Positions 22,541 to 63,842 of a stretch of DNA of 64,000 nucleotides are shown one piece after another. This stretch comes from an uncultured Gammaproteobacteria bacterium. Its GTDB lineage: Bacteria; Patescibacteriota; Patescibacteriia; Magasanikbacterales; UBA922. The notes under the pieces are model-generated. The model searched no databases and was not told the origin of the DNA. It was given only the letters and a program-made list of their open reading frames with translations. The DNA is taken from assembly GCA_964345045.1 (NCBI GenBank), contig CAYFPM010000001.1, forward strand, positions 44,215-108,214, read 5' to 3'. The position numbers and the translations under genes are program-made. How positions within the stretch are numbered: the first letter of the stretch is position 1; each line of letters begins with the position of its first letter.

Positions 22541-22626
22541 GCTCAGGTGGCGGAATTGGTAGACGCGCTAGCTTGAGGGGCTAGTCGAGGCTTTTCTCGG
22601 TGGAGGTTCAAATCCTCTCCTGAGCA
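22541..22626 (+). tRNA. tRNA-Leu (anticodon GAG), long variable arm
   Basis: acceptor GCTCAGG/CCTGAGC, D-loop AATTGGTAGA, anticodon loop TTGAGGG, T-loop GGTTCAAATCC. Confidence 0.85.
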
Positions 22627-22633
22627 CAAAAGG

Positions 22634-55723: not shown

Positions 55724-55758
55724 TTGGTTGTGGGTAGTTGGTAGTGAGTAGATTTTGA

Positions 55759-55859
55759 GAGTCATCCTGACTCGCCGTGGCGAGGAAGGATCCCAGTGGT
55801 AGTCCAAAGAGATCCTTCGACTGCGTTCGTCCTTTGGACTCACTCCGCTCAGGATGACT
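55759..55859. repeat. nested-inverted-repeat MITE-like element, copy 2
   Basis: outer IR gagtcatcctga...tcaggatgact, inner IR gtccaaag...ctttggac, core cgaggaaggatcccagtgg shared with 41799-41878. Confidence 0.6.
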
Positions 55860-55895
55860 TTGCTTAACTCTTTCATTATTCCTTATTCCAATCAT

Positions 55896-56097
55896 TTGAC
55901 ACTCTTTTTCAAGAGGCATATACTAAAAGTGATCCTGGCAAATTTGGACGAATATTCATATTCTACAAACTAGCTATTATGGAATACCTATATCGTCTCG
56001 ATCCGTGGATTGAGATTGCGGTTATCCACCTATTTTATAGGGATAGCGAATAACGTCCGGCTTGGATCATCAAAAAACAGCTAAAAGGCTGTTTTTT
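55896..56097 (+). promoter_or_regulatory. promoter (TTGACA-17-TATACT) + 24-codon ORF MEYLYRLDPWIEIAVIHLFYRDSE + intrinsic terminator, followed by second promoter TTGATT-16-TAGTAT at 56110-56137
   Basis: same promoter/short-ORF/terminator layout as the three downstream attenuators, but peptide not strongly biased (3 Tyr, 1 Trp). Confidence 0.35.
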
Positions 56098-56167
56098 GTT
56101 TTTTCTATTCTTGATTTTTTATCAATTTATGCTAGTATCAATTTCGCAACAACGGTGTTGCTAAAGA

Positions 56168-57772
56168 GTGAGGTTTGTCGTGAAAGTTTTGAGAGAAGTA
56201 GCAAGTGATATTGGTGGGCTCGTTTCGGTGGTGAACCGTGATACGGTTCGCCAATTCGCGCCGAACGATGGCGGCAATGTGTCGCCTATCGCCATGGAGT
56301 GGAGTTCCTTCTTGAGAGGGACGAGTGCCGACCAGGACTTGATCAAGCTGTGTAAACGTAACCAGGTGTGGCAAGTCATCGTGGTCACGCTCCCCGTGAA
56401 TACCTCCTACCTCGAGTTGGTTCGGGGGAGCGAGTTCGAGGGGGCTGACGTCGAGGAAATCTCCAATATGAATGGTGGGTTTGTCCACTACGTCCTGGTT
56501 CGGGCCAACGAGGGGCCGGCCGGCCCCATGAGCGTGGCAATCGGGGGCGATTGCCTGCGCCCAGAGGCCACCTTGACCGAGGTGTTCGAGAGAGCCTCGC
56601 TCTTGGCCACGGCCATGAGAGCAAAGGCCAGGTCGTTTTTGCCCAGTATGCCCGGCTTCCACGCCGGCAAAAAGGGAGCCCTACTCCTCGTCGACCGAGA
56701 TGGCGAGCGCGTGGTGCTGAGCAATCCCTCGGCCATGGCACTCTCGGCACCGGCCATGGTGCTTGGAGTGGGGTTTGCCAACCGACTACGCGTAGAGAGC
56801 TGTGCTGCTTGGGCTAGCCGCTATCGACTACCGCTCGGGGTTTTGTCTCCGGATTCTCTCTCCCCGGACGTGGTTACGGGAGGAGGGTGGACTCGGCTTG
56901 CCCAGGCATTCCGCTACTACGGGCTTGACTCTCGTATGGCCACCTGCCAGCCGGGCAAGACGCCGAATCCCTCGTCGGTGCCCACTGGCCAAGGTGTAGC
57001 CACGGCTGCTCTAGAAGTGGCCAAGTGGCTGCGGGAGTCGGGTAGAGTCCCGCAGGGCGAGCCGATTCGGGTGCTTGTCGAGGCTGCTGGCGCAGTGACG
57101 CAGGGCATGTTCCCACTGCTGCTAGAAGAAGGATTGGTGAAACCCGAGTACCTCACCTTCTACGACCCTAGCAGAGAGGCGATCGCCGTGATCGAGGCTC
57201 TGGTACCCGGCTGCCAAACGCTCTGTCGTTCGAACGATGTGGCACTCAGCAAGTTGGCCAACAAGACCTTCGATATCTTGATCAACAATGGCCTGGGCAA
57301 CCACTTGGGTACGCCAAAGCATATGGAGCACTTGGGAAGGATGGTTAGGTCTGGAGGACAGTTGGTGGTCTTGGGTGGAGCCAACAACATCATCAAGTGG
57401 GACAACCCGGCACTCAACTTGCCTCTCGTCATGGCTGAACGAGGAATTCAGGTGATCCCCGATACGGCTGTGTCGGGCGGTGGTTGGACCTTGGCCTTGG
57501 CTGGCCAAGCTGCCGAAGTGGCCGGGGTTGACCCGAGCAAATTGGCCAACCCGGTCAGTTCGTTTGTGTGTCGCTCGGTCTCGAGGAGAATTCAATCTGC
57601 CCTTGTCGCCTTCGGCGAGGGTGGTGGCGACCACCTCTGGAAGATCGTCTCGGAGCAGATGGAAGAGGCCGCTCCGTCGCTCGACCTGGTTCTCCCCGAG
57701 GACGAGTGGGCGGCGGCTGTCGATCCGAGAGACTTCCTGCGAGCGATAGGTGTGTCGCTCCAGGGCGAGTAG
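56168..57772 (+). CDS. Glu/Leu/Phe/Val-dehydrogenase-family (amino-acid dehydrogenase-like) protein, highly divergent; alternative GTG start 56180
   Basis: VVLGGANNIIKWDNPALNLPLVMAERGIQVIPDTAVSGGGWTL aligns with family block EGANGPTT..A..IL.ERGI.V.PDILANAGGVTVS; canonical GxGxxG replaced (VEAAGAV). Confidence 0.45.
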   Translation: MRFVVKVLREVASDIGGLVSVVNRDTVRQFAPNDGGNVSPIAMEWSSFLRGTSADQDLIKLCKRNQVWQVIVVTLPVNTSYLELVRGSEFEGADVEEISNMNGGFVHYVLVRANEGPAGPMSVAIGGDCLRPEATLTEVFERASLLATAMRAKARSFLPSMPGFHAGKKGALLLVDRDGERVVLSNPSAMALSAPAMVLGVGFANRLRVESCAAWASRYRLPLGVLSPDSLSPDVVTGGGWTRLAQAFRYYGLDSRMATCQPGKTPNPSSVPTGQGVATAALEVAKWLRESGRVPQGEPIRVLVEAAGAVTQGMFPLLLEEGLVKPEYLTFYDPSREAIAVIEALVPGCQTLCRSNDVALSKLANKTFDILINNGLGNHLGTPKHMEHLGRMVRSGGQLVVLGGANNIIKWDNPALNLPLVMAERGIQVIPDTAVSGGGWTLALAGQAAEVAGVDPSKLANPVSSFVCRSVSRRIQSALVAFGEGGGDHLWKIVSEQMEEAAPSLDLVLPEDEWAAAVDPRDFLRAIGVSLQGE

Positions 57773-57899
57773 AGCGACTGCCTGGCTCCGGCCCCTAGTC
57801 TCTTTTTAGGCCAGGCGCGACACCAATTTTTGTTCTTTTTTGTTGCGGCGAGCCTAGATTTTACCTTTGGTATATCTGGGCTCGTTGCACACACTCATC

Positions 57900-58059
57900 T
57901 TGACAAGAAGCAGAGATTTGTGTATATTAGTTTTAATCTTATGAAAACAAATATCCACAACTTCTTTTTCTTTTCTTTCTTTATCCCGCCAAAGAGTCGT
58001 GGTGTTTTGAGTTAATGCAAATTAAAATCAAGATTACCCCGACTCGTCGGGGTTTTTTG
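57900..58059 (+). promoter_or_regulatory. Phe-rich leader-peptide attenuator: promoter TTGACA-17-TATATT, near-leaderless ORF MKTNIHNFFFFSFFIPPKSRGVLS (57941-58015), intrinsic terminator 58036-58059
   Basis: 6 Phe codons in a 7-codon run (TTC TTT TTC TTT TCT TTC TTT); alternative pairing gagtcg(57998)/cgactc(58042) could act as antiterminator. Confidence 0.6.
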
Positions 58060-58167
58060 TTTATTCGGGTTTGGCGAAAGGTGATTAGACTTTTCGCTAA
58101 CCTCGAAGCCATAGTGGCTGAGGGGTTGAGACAATTTTTTCGCGAAAGCGAGAGAGGACAATAGACA

Positions 58168-59019
58168 ATGAAGAGTGAGCGAGAGTTTCTTGCCCAATAC
58201 ATGGACGGACCGGAGCATCGGCCAGACTGGGCTGGACATTCTGCGTTCGAGCTCGAAGGTCAGTTTGCCTTGCGTGGTGGCAATACCAACACCCAGCTGG
58301 TCTACCCGGTTGGACATTTGGTCTACAATGGCTTGATGAAAAGCTTCCCAAATGATCAGGAGCGCTTTAGCCCAGAGTTCAGCAACACTCAGGTGGAGCT
58401 GAACACCGGTGCTTGTGCAACCCCCGATCTGACGCTGGCAAAATTGCTCGAGCTGGTGGGGAAGATCAACCAGGTCGCTGGTCGTCACAACTTCCAGTTC
58501 GTGGATCACGAGTTCATCCCACTCAACGTGTGGGTTCCCGAGCAGGTATCACCGCTGGTGCCCCGCTACCAGCAGTTTGCCAACGATCCAGCCAACGTCG
58601 AGCGCGTGCCGCTGATGCACCGGGTGGCAGCGGCTCAGGTGCAGTGGGGCTGCGCCGATCCGGAGGAGCGTTTGGCACTCTTGAACGCCCTCACCACCGA
58701 ACTCGGTACCATGGAGAGCTTGGGATGGATCGACCCTGGTCGCAAGGCCGCGTTCGAAAAAATCCATGCCGGTTGGTACCCGCCTCCCTTCGACACTTGG
58801 AGTCGGTTTTACGAGTACATCCGAAGTCACCAAGATGGCGTGGCCATGATCGAGAGCCCGGCTCTGTACTACGCAGCAGTGCGTCCTCACCACGTGTACA
58901 GCACTGTCGAGCTCCGGCTCCCCGGCGCTACGCTCGATCCGGAGCGCTTGTTCCAGATTGTGTCGTTCGTGGCCGAGGTGTACAGCCAAGTCTGTAGGCG
59001 ACGTAGTGTAGCTGTCTAG
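58168..59019 (+). CDS. GCS2-family (glutamate-cysteine ligase family 2 / carboxylate-amine ligase) paralog, short form
   Basis: N-terminal AFELEGQ (E-x-E) and C-terminal STVELRLPGATLDPERL resembling YbdK TVEVRVMDTP block; middle HVHVG/LSAASP blocks not recognised. Confidence 0.4.
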   Translation: MKSEREFLAQYMDGPEHRPDWAGHSAFELEGQFALRGGNTNTQLVYPVGHLVYNGLMKSFPNDQERFSPEFSNTQVELNTGACATPDLTLAKLLELVGKINQVAGRHNFQFVDHEFIPLNVWVPEQVSPLVPRYQQFANDPANVERVPLMHRVAAAQVQWGCADPEERLALLNALTTELGTMESLGWIDPGRKAAFEKIHAGWYPPPFDTWSRFYEYIRSHQDGVAMIESPALYYAAVRPHHVYSTVELRLPGATLDPERLFQIVSFVAEVYSQVCRRRSVAV

Positions 59020-59136
59020 TCCCCCCCGAAGCATTCCTGCCCCACAAGAATGCTTCACCCCTTCCCTTTGTACAAAAATAATTTTGTATAGAGAAAAGAG
59101 GATTCTATTTTAAAAAGGAGATTATGCACATTTTGA

Positions 59137-59300
59137 TTGACAGGAAAGTAGAATTTGGATAATATCTAAATATTATGAAAAATAAGCGCAACATTCTGCT
59201 ACTAAGCCTGCTAGCTCTAGCCCCAGAGAGTGGTGATGTTGTGTTATCTGCCTAAGCAAAAACACATATTAGCAACACCGCTCATCTGCGGTGTTTTTGT
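59137..59300 (+). promoter_or_regulatory. Leu-rich leader-peptide attenuator: promoter TTGACA-17-TAATAT, leaderless ORF MKNKRNILLLSLLALAPESGDVVLSA (59175-59255), intrinsic terminator 59275-59300
   Basis: 6 Leu in 8 codons, four of them rare-looking CTA; terminator caccgc tcatct gcggtg ttttt. Confidence 0.6.
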
Positions 59301-59368
59301 TTACTTTGTCGAATTAAGCTTGGACTGAGTAGAGTAAAACTCATTCAGTTCAGACCGATTCTGACAAT

Positions 59369-60694
59369 TTGATTGGACGCTGCGTTGCAGCAAGGAGAGA
59401 AAGCCCCATGGCAACCCCGTGGACTACAGAAAACCTTCAAACCGCTGGCCGAGATGCACTTGCAAATTTGCTGGCGGAGAGTTCGCGAGCAGTTGCCAAG
59501 GCCTCAAATTCTGGTTGGATGGCTTTCGAGATGGAAGCCTCTCTGACCAAACTTCGCATTCCTGATTTGGCTGGGGTCTGGCCTGAAGTGAAGAGGGCTG
59601 ACGAGGTAGGTGTGGTCGTGGACGAGTTTCAAGACTACATGATCGAAGGCGTCCCTCCGCGTGACGCTGGAATCGTGGACGCGATGGGACTTCGTAGTTC
59701 GATCCTAGATGTAGCAGAGGCTATGGTCGCTGCTTGCGACAAGGCTGGCGTGCGCCTTACTCCCATTGCTCACCCTGATTCTTGGGGGGGGAAGCGGGAT
59801 ACCAAGATGCCTCAAAAGGCCGACCACCAGCGCATGGTTCGAGACACCATGCCGGCGGTTGGCTTGGGGGCTATTGGGGCCTCGCTCCAGCTCCACTGTG
59901 CCCACCCCTGCAACATCACCGAGGACAGATACTGGCGTACCCTCTTGCTCCTCCAGCAGCACGCGCCGCTCCTCTTGGCCTTGTCGGCCAACAGCCCCAA
60001 GAGCGGTAGCATGATTCATGGCAGCGTTCGGTATCTGCTTAGCCGATCGGTTTGGTCATTCCAGCCGTACTTCTGGCAGAGCTACGAAGAGTTCGTGGAT
60101 CATGTGCATGCACTTGTCCAGTACGGCAGCATCACCGGGCCGCACAACCTGCACGGTTGGGTCAAAGCCTGTGTCGGTTCGATCGAGCAACGTATCTGCG
60201 ACATTCCCGGTACTGTCCAAGAGATCTGGACGCTCTGTGCTCTGATGCGCGCTTTGGTGCAGTACTGCTACGAGCAGGCAGCTGACCCCAATGGATTCCT
60301 TCTTCAGGGAGATATTGGTCGTGATCAGCTGCTCTTGGCTCTGGAGCAGGCGGCCACCTTTGGCCTTTCCGACATGCAGGATTGCCGAATCCAAAGCCCG
60401 TGGGAAGGTCAGCGCGTCAAGCTCTACGATCTGTTCATGGAGCTCGGCAATCGCGTCGGAGATATCATGACGGATCAAGGGGCTGACTGGGAGAGGCAGT
60501 ACCTCTTCGAGCATATGCTCGCCGATCAGAAATGCGGCGAGAACGGAGCCACCCGGTTTGCGCGTTGGCACGAGCAGCACGACGGCAACATGACCAGGGT
60601 GGTGGAGGCCGCTAGCCGGCACTTCGGGCAGTCTCTCGGAGAGGCGAAAAAATCTCTGTCTGCGATGCAGCCAGATCAAGTCGTGAATCAATAG
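59369..60694 (+). CDS. GCS2-family carboxylate-amine ligase (glutamate-cysteine ligase family 2)
   Basis: LQLHCAHP (cf. HVHVG), LLALSANSPKSG (cf. LSAASPYMQG), SIEQRICDIPGT (cf. TVEVRVMDTP). Confidence 0.55.
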   Translation: MIGRCVAARRESPMATPWTTENLQTAGRDALANLLAESSRAVAKASNSGWMAFEMEASLTKLRIPDLAGVWPEVKRADEVGVVVDEFQDYMIEGVPPRDAGIVDAMGLRSSILDVAEAMVAACDKAGVRLTPIAHPDSWGGKRDTKMPQKADHQRMVRDTMPAVGLGAIGASLQLHCAHPCNITEDRYWRTLLLLQQHAPLLLALSANSPKSGSMIHGSVRYLLSRSVWSFQPYFWQSYEEFVDHVHALVQYGSITGPHNLHGWVKACVGSIEQRICDIPGTVQEIWTLCALMRALVQYCYEQAADPNGFLLQGDIGRDQLLLALEQAATFGLSDMQDCRIQSPWEGQRVKLYDLFMELGNRVGDIMTDQGADWERQYLFEHMLADQKCGENGATRFARWHEQHDGNMTRVVEAASRHFGQSLGEAKKSLSAMQPDQVVNQ

Positions 60695-60890
60695 TTCCTT
60701 TTGTGTAGTTAGCCATAGTTTTGGAGGCTGGCCCACTACACTCCCTTCCTTTTGCACAAAAGTTATTTTGTATAGAAGAGAGGTATAAATTAGTTTTCAC
60801 GCTGGCTCCATAGTCCCAGAGGTCTATGGAGCCAAATTGCCACAATACGGCTCCACAGGGCTACGCCACTATGGAGCCAGCATAGTAGTT

Positions 60891-60991
60891 CCTCCCCTAT
60901 AAGGGGAGGCTAGGTGGGGTCAAATCGTATACCAGACCCCCTCCCCGATGCTTTGATCGGGGCAGGCCAACTCCCCCTATTAGGGGGAGAG
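60891..60991. repeat. composite GC-rich palindromic element (CTCCCCCT-N4-AGGGGGAG family), long variant, just upstream of Ile-leader promoter
   Basis: cctcccctataaggggagg ... ggggtcaaatcgtataccagacccc ... ccccgatgctttgatcgggg ... ctccccctattagggggagag. Confidence 0.7.
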
Positions 60992-61009
60992 TTTCTGTCC
61001 ACAAAAACA

Positions 61010-61165
61010 TTGACATCCGCCTACAGCTCTGATAGGGTGAAGATAATATGAACAAACTATTCAACATTATTATTTGGATTATCGCCCAGTTTGGTGGTAA
61101 GTTTGTTCGTGAATAAAAATATTTACAACAAAAAATTACCGCCGGAGATGGCGGTATTTTTTTTC
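61010..61165 (+). promoter_or_regulatory. Ile-rich leader-peptide attenuator: promoter TTGACA-17-TAGGGT, leaderless ORF MNKLFNIIIWIIAQFGGKFVRE (61048-61116), intrinsic terminator 61136-61165
   Basis: 5 Ile in 7 codons; terminator taccgcc ggagat ggcggta tttttttt; RBS taggaagg before downstream gene. Confidence 0.6.
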
Positions 61166-61267
61166 TCGATCTTTGCAAACGTACTGGGTAGCACTGTGAT
61201 TACAAAATGTATTCAGAGTGGTGCCTAGTACCAAATTTTGTTTTTTGACAATGCAATATAGGAAGGT

Positions 61268-62617
61268 GTGACAATGAATCGGAAAATGAAAGAAGTTGCT
61301 CGTCGGGTCGCAGACCTGATCGAGGCGATGAACTACGCTGGACAGCGTGGGCTCCAGCTTGGGACAGAGCGAGAATTGGTAGCTGTGAAGGCCTCGAATC
61401 CTCGAGAGGTCGGAGGCTTTGCACTCTCTGTCGCCCAGAATCTCGCGACACAGCCAGGTTGGACAGCTGTCTACGACGGCACCACCGATCTGGTGGTTGG
61501 AGCCAAAAGTCCTGGTGGCGAGTACGAGGTCATGACCGACGCTGGCAAGTGGGTTCTAGAATACTGCCCGCTCGCACCGTGCGACTCTCTCAATAGTCTC
61601 GATAGGTTGTGTGGGGAGGCCGAGCGAACGATTATCTCGGCATCCCAAGGGCTTGGTTTCGAAGTTCTCGGTCTTGGGCGGCATCCGCTCTTTCTGGCAA
61701 ACCGGAGTAGCTGGACCCCAAAGCTGCGCTACAATGGTCTGCAGTCAGTTCTCAAGAACGGGGGCCACGAGACCTGCGAGACTGCTTCGCACCAAGATAC
61801 TGTAGACGTACGAAATTCGGGACACATGATGCAGGTGGTCAACATCGGCAACGCTCTAGCAGGTCCGGTTGCCGCTATCTGCGCCAACTCGCTAGTGTTT
61901 CACGGAGAAGTGCATCAAGATCAACTGGCCAGCCGGTTGCTGACGTGGCAAAGGATTTGCCACCCGGTACAATTCGCTCGAGTGGGTATCCCCATGGTCT
62001 TTCGGGACGTAGGGCACTACGCCGAATACCTGGTGCGTTTGCCGTACCTCTTCCACATTCACGAAACTGGTGTTGCCGACGTGTTCGACAAACCTTTCTA
62101 CGAAGCGGTTGAGTACTTCGAGAGCGTTGACTTCGGACGTTTGCTGCAGATTCACATGGCTTGCGTGTGGTTCGATGCTCGGGTACGCATGAACAAGTGT
62201 GCCAGTGTCGAGCTGCGAGCACCGTGTGCTCAGCCTCAAGGCATGGGTCAAGCGGTGTCTGCTCTACACCTAGGGCTGGTTCACAACTCGGCAGCTGCCA
62301 GCAACTTGGTGCTGACGCATTCTTGGGATGAGTGGCAGGCAGCGCGCTTCGATGCCGCCAATTTGGCACTCAACGCCAGCGTTGGATCTGAGCCTATGGC
62401 AGAGGTGGTCCGGTCTATGTTGCACGTGGCCGAAGATGGCTTACGCTTAGCCGGAGAGGACCCTACCAGGCTTGCCCCGCTGTGGCAACGACTCGAGGAT
62501 CCTTCTCAATTGCCAGCTATGATGGCCGGCAAGCTCTTTGTCGAGGGTGGAATAGATGCCTTGGTAGAGGCCAGGCGCTTCCAACTACAGCAAGAGCCAG
62601 TAGCTCGCGCTTCTTAG
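61268..62617 (+). CDS. GCS2-family carboxylate-amine ligase paralog
   Basis: LGTERELVAV N-terminal E-x-E, ICANSLVFHGE, ASVELRAPCAQP (cf. TVEVRVMDTP). Confidence 0.5.
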   Translation: MTMNRKMKEVARRVADLIEAMNYAGQRGLQLGTERELVAVKASNPREVGGFALSVAQNLATQPGWTAVYDGTTDLVVGAKSPGGEYEVMTDAGKWVLEYCPLAPCDSLNSLDRLCGEAERTIISASQGLGFEVLGLGRHPLFLANRSSWTPKLRYNGLQSVLKNGGHETCETASHQDTVDVRNSGHMMQVVNIGNALAGPVAAICANSLVFHGEVHQDQLASRLLTWQRICHPVQFARVGIPMVFRDVGHYAEYLVRLPYLFHIHETGVADVFDKPFYEAVEYFESVDFGRLLQIHMACVWFDARVRMNKCASVELRAPCAQPQGMGQAVSALHLGLVHNSAAASNLVLTHSWDEWQAARFDAANLALNASVGSEPMAEVVRSMLHVAEDGLRLAGEDPTRLAPLWQRLEDPSQLPAMMAGKLFVEGGIDALVEARRFQLQQEPVARAS

Positions 62618-62744: not shown

Positions 62745-63842
62745 ATGGACAATAATAAATTGGACGACATAGTAGCCTTAACCAAAAAATTGGTTCATTT
62801 TCGTGGTACCGAAAGTAGAGTAGAAAATCTTCGCCGTTGTGCAGATTTTATTGCTGATTATTTTATAGATAGTGGCCTTACAGTAGAGCGCTTTGAAAAA
62901 GATGGATACCCTTCGGTCGTAGTCACCAAACATGGCACCAAAAAACCCAAAATTTTTCTAAACGGACATTTTGATATGGTAGAGGGAGAAGATCACCAAT
63001 TTGATCCCAAAATAGAAGGAGACAGAATGTTTGGTAGGGGAGTGTTTGATATGCAAAGTGGCAATGCTGTTATTATGACATTGATGAAAGAACTAGCTCA
63101 TACCGAACACGATGTAGGATTAATGCTAACCGGAGACGAAGAAGCCGGTGGTTTTCGGGGTGTTGGTTATGTAATGGATTTTAACTATAGTTCGGATGTA
63201 GTAATAATTCCCGATGGTGGCATGGCCGTAGAAAATATTATAAGTAGAGAAAAAGGGATTATAAGATTTGATCTACAAGCTCATGGCAAAAGATCTCATT
63301 CGGCCTATCCTTGGCTTGGTGACAATGCTATTACCAAATTGATGAGTGGAATAGAAAAAACACTAGCTCTTTTCCCAGAATCAGAAAAAGATATAGAAGA
63401 TAATTGGACAACCAATGTAGCTGTAACCAAAATTAATGCTGGTATAGGTGGCAATGTAGTACCGGAAAAAGCCTATGCTCATTTTGATGTTCGTTATATT
63501 ACAGAGGACAACCCCGAAGAAATCTTGGAAAGAATTAGAAAAGTTTTGCCAGACGGAGTAGATTTAAAATTAGATTTTATAGAACCAGCTACCAGCACAG
63601 ATACTAGTAGTCCATATGTAGAAAAATTTGTCGAAACCCTAAAAGAGCACGACAAAGAACCAAAATTCATTTCGGCTATGGCGGCCTCTGATTCTAGATT
63701 TTTTCACGAAAGAGGCATTCCGTTTATCATAAGCCAACCAGAAGGTGGCGGACATCACGGTCCATACGAATGGGTAAGAGTTTCGGCAATTGGCAAATAT
63801 TACGATATACTAAAGTCATACCTAGATAAGGTTGCCAGGTAA
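62745..63842 (+). CDS. M20-family metallopeptidase (ArgE/DapE/dipeptidase-like)
   Basis: LNGHFDMVEGE and TGDEEAGG metal-ligand motifs. Confidence 0.8.
   Translation: MDNNKLDDIVALTKKLVHFRGTESRVENLRRCADFIADYFIDSGLTVERFEKDGYPSVVVTKHGTKKPKIFLNGHFDMVEGEDHQFDPKIEGDRMFGRGVFDMQSGNAVIMTLMKELAHTEHDVGLMLTGDEEAGGFRGVGYVMDFNYSSDVVIIPDGGMAVENIISREKGIIRFDLQAHGKRSHSAYPWLGDNAITKLMSGIEKTLALFPESEKDIEDNWTTNVAVTKINAGIGGNVVPEKAYAHFDVRYITEDNPEEILERIRKVLPDGVDLKLDFIEPATSTDTSSPYVEKFVETLKEHDKEPKFISAMAASDSRFFHERGIPFIISQPEGGGHHGPYEWVRVSAIGKYYDILKSYLDKVAR

Follow-up and report, generated by a model that had tools for sequence, protein, structure and literature searches.

A leucine-rich short open reading frame as a putative transcription attenuator of a YbdK/GCS2-type ligase gene in a Patescibacteria genome

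The stretch of DNA analysed here, referred to as the window, comprises 64,000 nucleotides of contig CAYFPM010000001.1 (GenBank assembly GCA_964345045.1, positions 44,215 to 108,214) and comes from a Patescibacteria (Magasanikbacteria-like) genome. Its Tgt protein shares 61 to 63% identity with proteins recorded under "Candidatus Magasanikbacteria bacterium" or "Patescibacteria group". On its forward strand lies a compact leader module, in which a promoter, a short leucine (Leu)-rich open reading frame (ORF) and an intrinsic terminator precede the gene for a 428-amino-acid (aa) YbdK/GCS2-type carboxylate-amine ligase. We consider it likely, with a probability of roughly 0.78, that this module is a ribosome-mediated transcription attenuator that senses charged tRNA-Leu and controls the ligase gene. 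Leader-peptide attenuation as such is a textbook mechanism; new here are the phylum, the tandem array of amino-acid-specific units and the orphan ligases that are their targets.

The short ORF, its promoter and its terminator were found where a preliminary description of the locus had placed them (Table 1). The leader ATG lies 9 nt downstream of the −10 element and no Shine-Dalgarno (SD) sequence precedes it, so the predicted 5′ untranslated region (UTR) is about 0 to 3 nt long and the ORF effectively leaderless; promoter spacing puts the predicted transcription start near position 59172, about 3 nt upstream of the ATG. The near-leaderless ATG of the preliminary description therefore stands, its transcript start being a prediction. 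The same holds for its portrayal of a Leu-rich leader that uses CTA and CTG: Leu occupies six of the eight residues at codons 8 to 15, four times as CTA and twice as CTG. The ORF is co-oriented with the 428-aa ligase gene and 152 nt upstream of its start at 59408. Its terminator, a hairpin (59274-59295) with a T-tract, precedes what had been described as the second GCS2 gene, the 428-aa ligase gene, about 110 nt upstream of that gene's SD sequence. The stretch from the terminator to the start codon of the ligase gene held no promoter-like site, so that expression of the ligase would depend on read-through, and an alignment revealed no conserved element or structure there.

Residue runs of this kind are rare in the window. 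Among 322 ATG-initiated ORFs of 15 to 45 aa in the six reading frames, two have a stretch of 8 residues in which 6 or more are identical, namely the Leu-rich leader and a phenylalanine (Phe)-rich ORF at 57941-58015. When both strands of the window (128 kb) were scanned for a promoter, an ATG within 3 to 22 nt, an ORF of 12 to 45 codons and a terminator, three matches were obtained, one before each of three YbdK/GCS2-like genes. These counts argue against a chance ORF in an AT-rich spacer beside the ordinary promoter and terminator of an unrelated small transcript, with no regulation involved. AT-rich spacers do yield many promoter-like hexamers, and the island that carries the ligase genes holds 14 promoter-like sites versus 5.0 expected and 17 terminator-like sites versus 8.4 expected. 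However, loci with proteins of only 25 to 40% identity retain the architecture, and the predicted RNA switch described below arose in none of 100 shuffled sequences. We regard such a coincidence as extremely improbable.

In silico, the Leu leader RNA contains four segments with mutually exclusive 1:2, 2:3 and 3:4 pairings. Folded freely, the leader (59172-59302) forms a long 1:2 helix (59185-59203 with 59229-59245) together with the terminator, with a minimum free energy (MFE) of −36.4 kcal/mol (z = −2.5); a construct ending at the terminator stem (59172-59295) reaches −36.1 kcal/mol. In the antiterminator, 59224-59245 pairs with 59261-59288, and the core of this helix (59228-59235 with 59276-59283) sequesters the 5′ arm of the terminator. 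The ribosome was represented by 28 masked, unpaired nucleotides (A-site −15 to +12), and the output was the ensemble probability of the terminator stem. This probability was 0.00 to 0.13 with the A-site on Leu codons 8 to 10, 12 and 13, and 0.82 to 0.92 with the A-site anywhere from codon 14 to the stop; it was 0.69 without a ribosome. The constrained folds with a ribosome on the Leu codons had energies of −26 to −32 kcal/mol. When the sequence between the stalled footprint and the terminator was shuffled, a comparable switch was seen in 0 of 100 cases and the mean terminator probability was 0.90.

In the mechanism we propose, transcription would start some 3 nt upstream of the ATG, with a ribosome loading directly on the near-leaderless 5′ AUG. 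When Leu-tRNA is plentiful, the ribosome would pass the six Leu codons and cover segment 2, the terminator hairpin and its U-tract would form, and transcription would stop before the ligase gene. When Leu-tRNA is scarce, the ribosome would stall on codons 8 to 13 and hold segment 1; segment 2, now free, would pair with segment 3, including the 5′ arm of the terminator, and polymerase would read into the ligase gene. Stalling would presumably respond to the supply of Leu. A transcript that is not translated would fold as 1:2 plus 3:4 and terminate, which would also insulate the ligase gene from upstream read-through.

When 1.84 billion cluster representatives (50% clustering) were searched exhaustively with phmmer, eight members of the family of the 428-aa protein were found, with 24 to 40% identity. 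Contigs were recovered for the family members (L numbers below), and seven independent loci make up the comparative set. Word-indexed searches for further loci, using the 428-aa protein or a profile of eight sequences, returned essentially only the query itself, metagenome scans returned nothing and a genome scan returned a single locus. At the three closest homologous loci (L003, L005 and L002), the downstream proteins are 31 to 37% identical to the window protein by BLASTP and alignment. By the terms of the preliminary description, its proposal would fail if homologous loci lacked the Leu-rich ORF; the ORF is present at all three. Each of these leaders has its own terminator, and those complete at the 5′ end also have a promoter with the same spacing. 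Because the proteins are only 25 to 40% identical, the related loci are not assembly duplicates of one organism.

The use of CTA and CTG codons, real as it is in the window leader, is not conserved, because the homologous Leu leaders use CTT, CTC and TTG. Selective use of "hungry" codons as a general feature was accordingly rejected, the CTA/CTG choice being specific to this genome. In host genes, Leu is encoded by TTG (37%), CTT (17%), CTA (17%), TTA (16%), CTC (7%) and CTG (6%). A tRNA-Leu(UAG) gene was found neither in the window nor in the related loci compared; the only tRNA-Leu gene in the window is that for tRNA-Leu(GAG), at 22541-22627.

The Leu module is one of several. The island at 56.1 to 62.7 kb consists of four plus-strand genes of 57 to 60% G+C content (GC), separated by AT-rich spacers, which encode a 534-aa protein and three very divergent YbdK/GCS2-type ligases of 283, 428 and 447 aa. 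The spacers before the 283-aa and 447-aa ligase genes carry a Phe-rich and an isoleucine (Ile)-rich leader, respectively, and since all three spacers share the same design, the island is a tandem of Phe, Leu and Ile units. The Ile unit shows the textbook arrangement of segments (z = −5.7). Elsewhere in the comparative set, the sister subclade of the ligase family (L004, L006, L010 and L011) has Ile-rich or mixed Ile/Leu leaders, and Phe, Leu, valine (Val) or Ile leaders stand before other YbdK-like genes in L003, L006 and L010 (Table 1). In an all-against-all BLAST comparison, the amino acid of the leader tracks the ligase clade: Phe in 3/3 members of the short clade, Leu in 4/4 of clade B1, and Ile or Ile/Leu in 4/4 of clade B2, with mixed branched-chain leaders in a third ligase clade. 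Under the proposed mechanism, every divergent YbdK-like ligase gene would be governed by a separate attenuator that responds to Phe, Leu, Ile or Val.

In total, the seven loci contain 13 to 14 modules, of which 13 entered the tests of folding, geometry and arm complementarity. The ATG lies 6 to 12 nt after the −10 element in all 13, with the same −35/−10 spacing; the first codons are A-rich (MK/MN...), the residue run starts at codon 7 to 11, the ORF is open for 18 to 28 codons, and the stop codon lies 18 to 32 nt before the terminator. A switch from antiterminator to terminator is predicted within or at the end of the Phe/Leu/Ile/Val run in 11 of the 13 modules, and for 10 of the 13 none of 100 shuffles reproduced it. 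The terminator sequences differ among modules, and segment 2 fits the terminator arm of its own module better than foreign arms (mean duplex energy −12.3 versus −10.0 kcal/mol; permutation p = 0.0008, 13 modules). What is shown here comprises the sequence elements, the alternative pairings, and their conservation and co-variation.

A real terminator/antiterminator switch could also be governed by a ligand, a tRNA or a protein, in the manner of a riboswitch, a T-box-like element or the target of an RNA-binding protein, with the ORF incidental. The alternative hairpins themselves are well supported, and the missing SD sequence would suit an RNA that is not translated. A fixed ATG position is needless for such a switch, however, and so is an ORF that is always open for 18 to 28 codons, with its run starting at codon 7 to 11 and its stop always before the terminator. 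Moreover, no Rfam riboswitch or T-box matched, and the leaders, at about 120 nt, are much shorter than T-boxes. We therefore judge control of this kind very unlikely.

The ORF might instead encode a functional small hydrophobic peptide. This could reside in the membrane, or it could be a precursor or substrate for the adjacent ATP-dependent ligase, of the kind found among ribosomally synthesised and post-translationally modified peptides (RiPPs); a leaky terminator would then set the ratio of peptide to enzyme as in lantibiotic operons. Many RiPP clusters likewise have a dedicated strong promoter, a short ORF, a terminator and then a ligase-type enzyme, the leader peptide is basic at the N-terminus and hydrophobic in its core, and in the window, L003 and L010 the array is followed by a gene for an M20 peptidase. 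Against this, the 14 modules share only a run of one residue, whose identity varies by clade (Phe, Leu, Ile or Val), with no conserved core or recognition motif, and genes for a transporter, a protease or immunity are absent. The sole peptide motif common to the Leu leaders, SG.VV, maps onto the segment 2 nucleotides AGYGG...GTTGT, kept in L003 and L005, so that what is conserved corresponds to nucleotides that pair with the module's own terminator; the leader peptides are otherwise unconserved. Because of this correspondence, the constraint acts on the RNA and the codon run and not on a peptide product, and in 11 of 13 modules the predicted switch point is inside that run or at its end. A functional peptide is, in our view, very improbable.

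Several observations weigh against the attenuator that we favour. Only seven independent loci were found in very large databases. Two modules, the Ile module of L004 and the mixed module of L011, show no predicted switch, and the Leu module of L005 switches weakly. The folding test was computed at equilibrium for an assumed footprint and does not represent co-transcriptional kinetics, and the transcription start and translation of the leader ORF are predicted from promoter spacing alone. We know of no demonstration of leaderless initiation in Patescibacteria, and the basic N-terminus and hydrophobic stretch of the leader also resemble a small membrane or signal-like peptide. No connection between the regulated ligases and the metabolism of Leu, Ile, Phe or Val is known to us, so that the physiological logic is tentative. 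Finally, L004 (6960-7140) and L006 (2670-2937) have a second TTGACA promoter-like site 3′ of the terminator, and attenuator control may be partial in these two loci. There, a leader of 170 to 270 nt with long hairpins lies between the second promoter-like site and the ligase start, which suggests a further layer of regulation that the window lacks.

The preliminary description had called the module leuL-like, and this comparison is apt for the mechanism but does not extend to homology. The antiterminator is predicted to form only with a ribosome on the Leu run. Like enterobacterial leuL (Rfam Leu_leader, RF00512), the module has an intrinsic terminator ahead of the structural gene, a short ORF in which Leu codons are clustered, and four segments whose exclusive 1:2, 2:3 and 3:4 hairpins would give read-through upon ribosome stalling. 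The leuL leader uses the rare CUA codon. Unlike leuL, the window leader lacks an SD sequence and has almost no 5′ UTR, and it controls a YbdK-type ligase in a member of the Patescibacteria, not leuABCD. The Leu module gave no match to RF00512, either at the gathering threshold or at E ≤ 5. The best Rfam matches of the island were those of the Phe and Ile sister modules to Phe_leader (RF01859), the family of pheL. Both align over the full model (positions 1-125), and their peptides (MKTNIHNFFFFSFFIPP...) resemble the pheL peptide; however, because their scores of 27.1 bits (Phe) and 32.2 bits (Ile, E = 0.022) fall below the gathering threshold of 55, they are not members of this family, and the Leu module has no match to it.

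Leaderless trp, leu and ilv leader peptides occur in Corynebacterium. In mycobacteria, attenuators with leaderless polycysteine short ORFs have been established experimentally, and there the cysteine (Cys) ORF is reported to act on translation by unmasking a downstream ribosome-binding site (bioRxiv 10.1101/834739). The window module shares with these actinobacterial systems a short ORF with a 5′ AUG (at a predicted start) as the first cistron, a run of one codon type and several independent units tuned on the same principle. It differs from the mycobacterial Cys ORF in that its output is a canonical intrinsic terminator, and the phylum and the target genes are others. T-box riboswitches likewise convert a tRNA-charging signal into a choice between terminator and antiterminator before amino-acid-related genes, but they bind uncharged tRNA directly, span 200 to 300 nt and are untranslated; the Rfam comparison gave no T-box hit. 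A literature search returned no report of leader-peptide attenuation in Patescibacteria (also known as CPR, the Candidate Phyla Radiation) and none of a YbdK/GCS2-family gene under leader-peptide control, nor was any paper found for the study accession PRJEB17505.

The 428-aa protein belongs with the YbdK/GCS2 ligases by its Pfam GCS2 score (29.6 bits versus a cut-off of 21) and by a PDB profile match to YbdK (1R8G, E = 5.5e-14). Its AlphaFold model has a predicted local distance difference test (pLDDT) score of 80 and a predicted template modelling (pTM) score of 0.88, and in Foldseek it matches Escherichia coli YbdK (1R8G) and the Salmonella orthologue (1TT4) with template modelling (TM) scores of 0.79 to 0.82. 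It differs from these enzymes in sequence, with only 14 to 16% identity and about eight representatives among 1.84 billion proteins, and no NCBIfam equivalog cut-off was reached, all scores being far below. Since the model matches YbdK first and then glutamate-cysteine ligases, Dop/PafA and glutamine synthetases, the protein would be an ATP-dependent ligase of the gamma-glutamyl type or, possibly, a Dop-like amidase. The 534-aa protein encoded by the first island gene and a 453-aa protein of L003 had no Pfam, NCBIfam or PDB match of value. Sparing of the cognate amino acid in the regulated proteins was considered and rejected, since depletion was not consistent and the Phe-controlled protein has the highest Phe content (5.3%). 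A stand-alone gene of the class-I glutamine amidotransferase/peptidase C26-like type precedes the array in L006 and L007 and is the first gene behind the leader in L011 and L012, and an M20 peptidase gene lies directly downstream of the array in the window, L003 and L010 (Table 1). Such neighbours recall pathways of gamma-glutamylation and deglutamylation and are a possible clue to the function of the ligases.

The host DNA is AT-rich, with about 38% GC outside the island, and in all seven loci the attenuator-controlled YbdK-like genes are 14 to 22 percentage points richer in GC than their flanks (0.57 to 0.60 versus 0.38 in the window). Their GC at third codon positions (GC3) is 0.5 to 0.82, and compared with host proteins their products are poor in lysine (0.29-fold), Ile (0.43-fold) and Phe (0.66-fold). 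The GC-rich orthologues are only 25 to 40% identical, and the leader-bearing spacers are AT-rich and host-like in composition. The GC-richness does not stem from a single recent transfer. A defence or mobile-element origin of the island was also rejected, PADLOC giving no matches. Three other genes in the window are GC-rich: one for a 379-aa protein without a Pfam match (GC 0.56), one for an 845-aa ResIII/helicase protein with HA domains (0.52) and one for a 275-aa protein without a match (0.49). No leader-peptide module lies upstream of any of them, and they were possibly acquired horizontally.

A fourth spacer unit, before the 534-aa gene, has a near-consensus promoter (TTGACA-17-TATACT) and a highly structured RNA of about 180 nt (MFE −57 kcal/mol, z = −5.7) that ends in a 12-bp terminator, followed by a second promoter-like site (TTGATT-16-TAGTAT). 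Its sole ORF, MEYLYRLDPWIEIAVIHLFYRDSE, is not leaderless, starting 48 nt from the predicted transcription start, and has no residue run; the unit was therefore rejected as a leader-peptide module. Rfam gave no match for it, and it may represent a small RNA or a cis-regulator of another type. Two copies of a 34-nt direct repeat, CCCTTCCYTTTGYACAAAARTWATTTTGTATAGA, are 88% identical and hold an AT-rich palindrome. Each copy follows a ligase gene and precedes the −35 element of the next module, by about 45 nt for the Leu module and about 235 nt for the Ile module; the repeat could be an operator or an end-of-gene hairpin. Within the AT-rich spacer before the Ile leader is a cluster of GC-rich palindromes, comprising a 39-nt inverted repeat made up of two GGCTCCA...TGGAGCC hairpins (60801-60881), CCTCCCCTATAAGGGGAGG at about 60893 and CTCCCCCTATTAGGGGGAG at 60971-60989; it looks like insertions of repetitive extragenic palindromic (REP) or miniature elements. 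Directly 3′ of the aminotransferase gene are two tandem copies of AGTTGGTTGTGGGTAG and a long imperfect palindrome, GAGAGTCATCCTGAC...GTCAGGATGACTTTGC, with an internal hairpin (55785-55818).

Table 1. Features of the Leu leader module, the ligase island and related loci. Coordinates are those of the window unless a locus (L number) is named.
Feature	Position	Strand	Details
Leader-transcript promoter	TTGACA 59137-59142; TAATAT 59160-59165	+	sigma-70-type, 17-nt spacer, 10/12 consensus match
Leader ORF	59175-59255	+	MKNKRNILLLSLLALAPESGDVVLSA; ATG to TAA, 26 codons/26 aa
Regulatory Leu run, codons 8-15	59196-59219	+	CTG CTA CTA AGC CTG CTA GCT CTA
Segment 1	59185-59203	+	5′ strand of 1:2 (anti-antiterminator/pause) helix in MFE fold; overlaps codons 4-10
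Segment 2	59224-59245	+	pairs with segment 1 or with segment 3 (antiterminator); encodes ...PESGDVV
Segment 3	59261-59283	+	pairs with segment 2; alternatively, 59274-59281 in its 3′ part forms the terminator 5′ arm with segment 4
Segment 4, terminator 3′ arm	59288-59295	+	pairs with 59274-59281
Intrinsic terminator	59274-59281/59288-59295; T-tract 59296-59302	+	stem AACACCGC/GCGGTGTT, 8 bp (5 GC), 6-nt loop; T-tract TTTGTTT
428-aa YbdK/GCS2-type carboxylate-amine ligase gene	59408-60694	+	SD AAGGAG
Phe sister module	57900-58062	+	promoter TTGACA-17-TATATT 57900-57928; ORF MKTNIHNFFFFSFFIPPKSRGVLS 57941-58015; terminator 58036-58053
283-aa YbdK-like gene behind Phe module	58168-59019	+	
Ile sister module	61010-61166	+	TTGACA 61010-61015, 17 nt, TAGGGT 61033-61038; ORF MNKLFNIIIWIIAQFGGKFVRE 61048-61116; terminator 61137-61156
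Ile module segments 1/2/3/4	61079-61086, 61093-61100, 61137-61143, 61150-61156	+	
447-aa YbdK-like gene behind Ile module	61274-62617	+	
L003 Leu leader			MKHIQHSALLLALLLTPTSGGVVCAK; 26 codons, as in window
L005 Leu leader			MKAMHTTQRFLTLLLCQQSGVVV
L002 Leu leader			...NLLNLLPNKDYGGSYFCV; 5′-truncated by contig end
L004 Ile leader			MNYIVFTIIILIGLPGRAVYLR
L006 sister-subclade leader			MNHTYRIISLNIILVTRGGFCM
L010 sister-subclade leader			MKTRHNNIIVNIISRHSRWF
L011 mixed leader			MNALYAIFLIWIGLIPSRAVL
Phe leaders before other YbdK-like genes			L003 MISNQNSFFFFFFFASARGGMISG; L006 MKNQINTFTFFFFGDCSAV
Leu leader before other YbdK-like gene			L010 MNTAYKNLRALLLLLTSE
Val leader before other YbdK-like gene			L003 MKSRQNFVVVVGLASLWR
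Ile leader before other YbdK-like gene			L003 MKTVHQTIIIIAIILAQLSGGLLVSQRV
GC-rich ranges	window 56168-62617; L003 6110-14476; L004 7140-8384; L006 1306-4212; L010 1991-5165; L011 8001-9332		
C26-like gene	L006 382-1104; L007 1455-2177; L011 7168-7884		first gene behind leader in L011/L012
M20 peptidase gene	window 62745-63842; L003 14669-15763; L010 5279-6376		
Other GC-rich gene, 379 aa	18222-19361	+	
Other GC-rich gene, 275 aa	23499-24326	+	
Other GC-rich gene, 845 aa	35176-37713	-	
Fourth spacer unit	55896-56108		ORF 55979-56053; terminator 56071-56098
34-nt direct repeat	59059-59092; 60743-60776		
GC-rich palindrome cluster	60790-60995		
Repeats 3′ of aminotransferase gene	55724-55880		

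Because the ligases would be switched on when the charged tRNA is low, and because the leaders are clade-specific, the modules suggest that these enzymes serve the supply or handling of the hydrophobic amino acid that is sensed. An attenuator reports the metabolite with which a gene is concerned, and the leaders are therefore a rare direct functional clue to the ligases. More tentatively, and with real doubt, the codon identity of the leader (Phe, Leu, Ile or Val) could be read as a label for the substrate or pathway of each ligase clade. Patescibacteria would then carry unrecognised, starvation-induced and amino-acid-specific enzymes of the glutamate-cysteine ligase/glutamine synthetase/Dop superfamily that supply or salvage hydrophobic amino acids, and the GC-richness of their genes would be selected within that programme. 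If so, the enzymes might make gamma-glutamyl or amide conjugates or, Dop-like, cleave them. To our knowledge, Patescibacteria are generally thought to lack amino acid biosynthesis.

The design of one leader for one ligase predicts Leu for clade B1, Ile for clade B2 and Phe for the short clade. At the level of sequence, the modules would also be evidence for leaderless translation and intrinsic termination in Patescibacteria, and they offer compact amino-acid-specific sensors. The clue that they hold bears both on the role of orphan YbdK-type carboxylate-amine ligases and on how the ultra-small, biosynthetically poor Patescibacteria meet a shortage of single amino acids.

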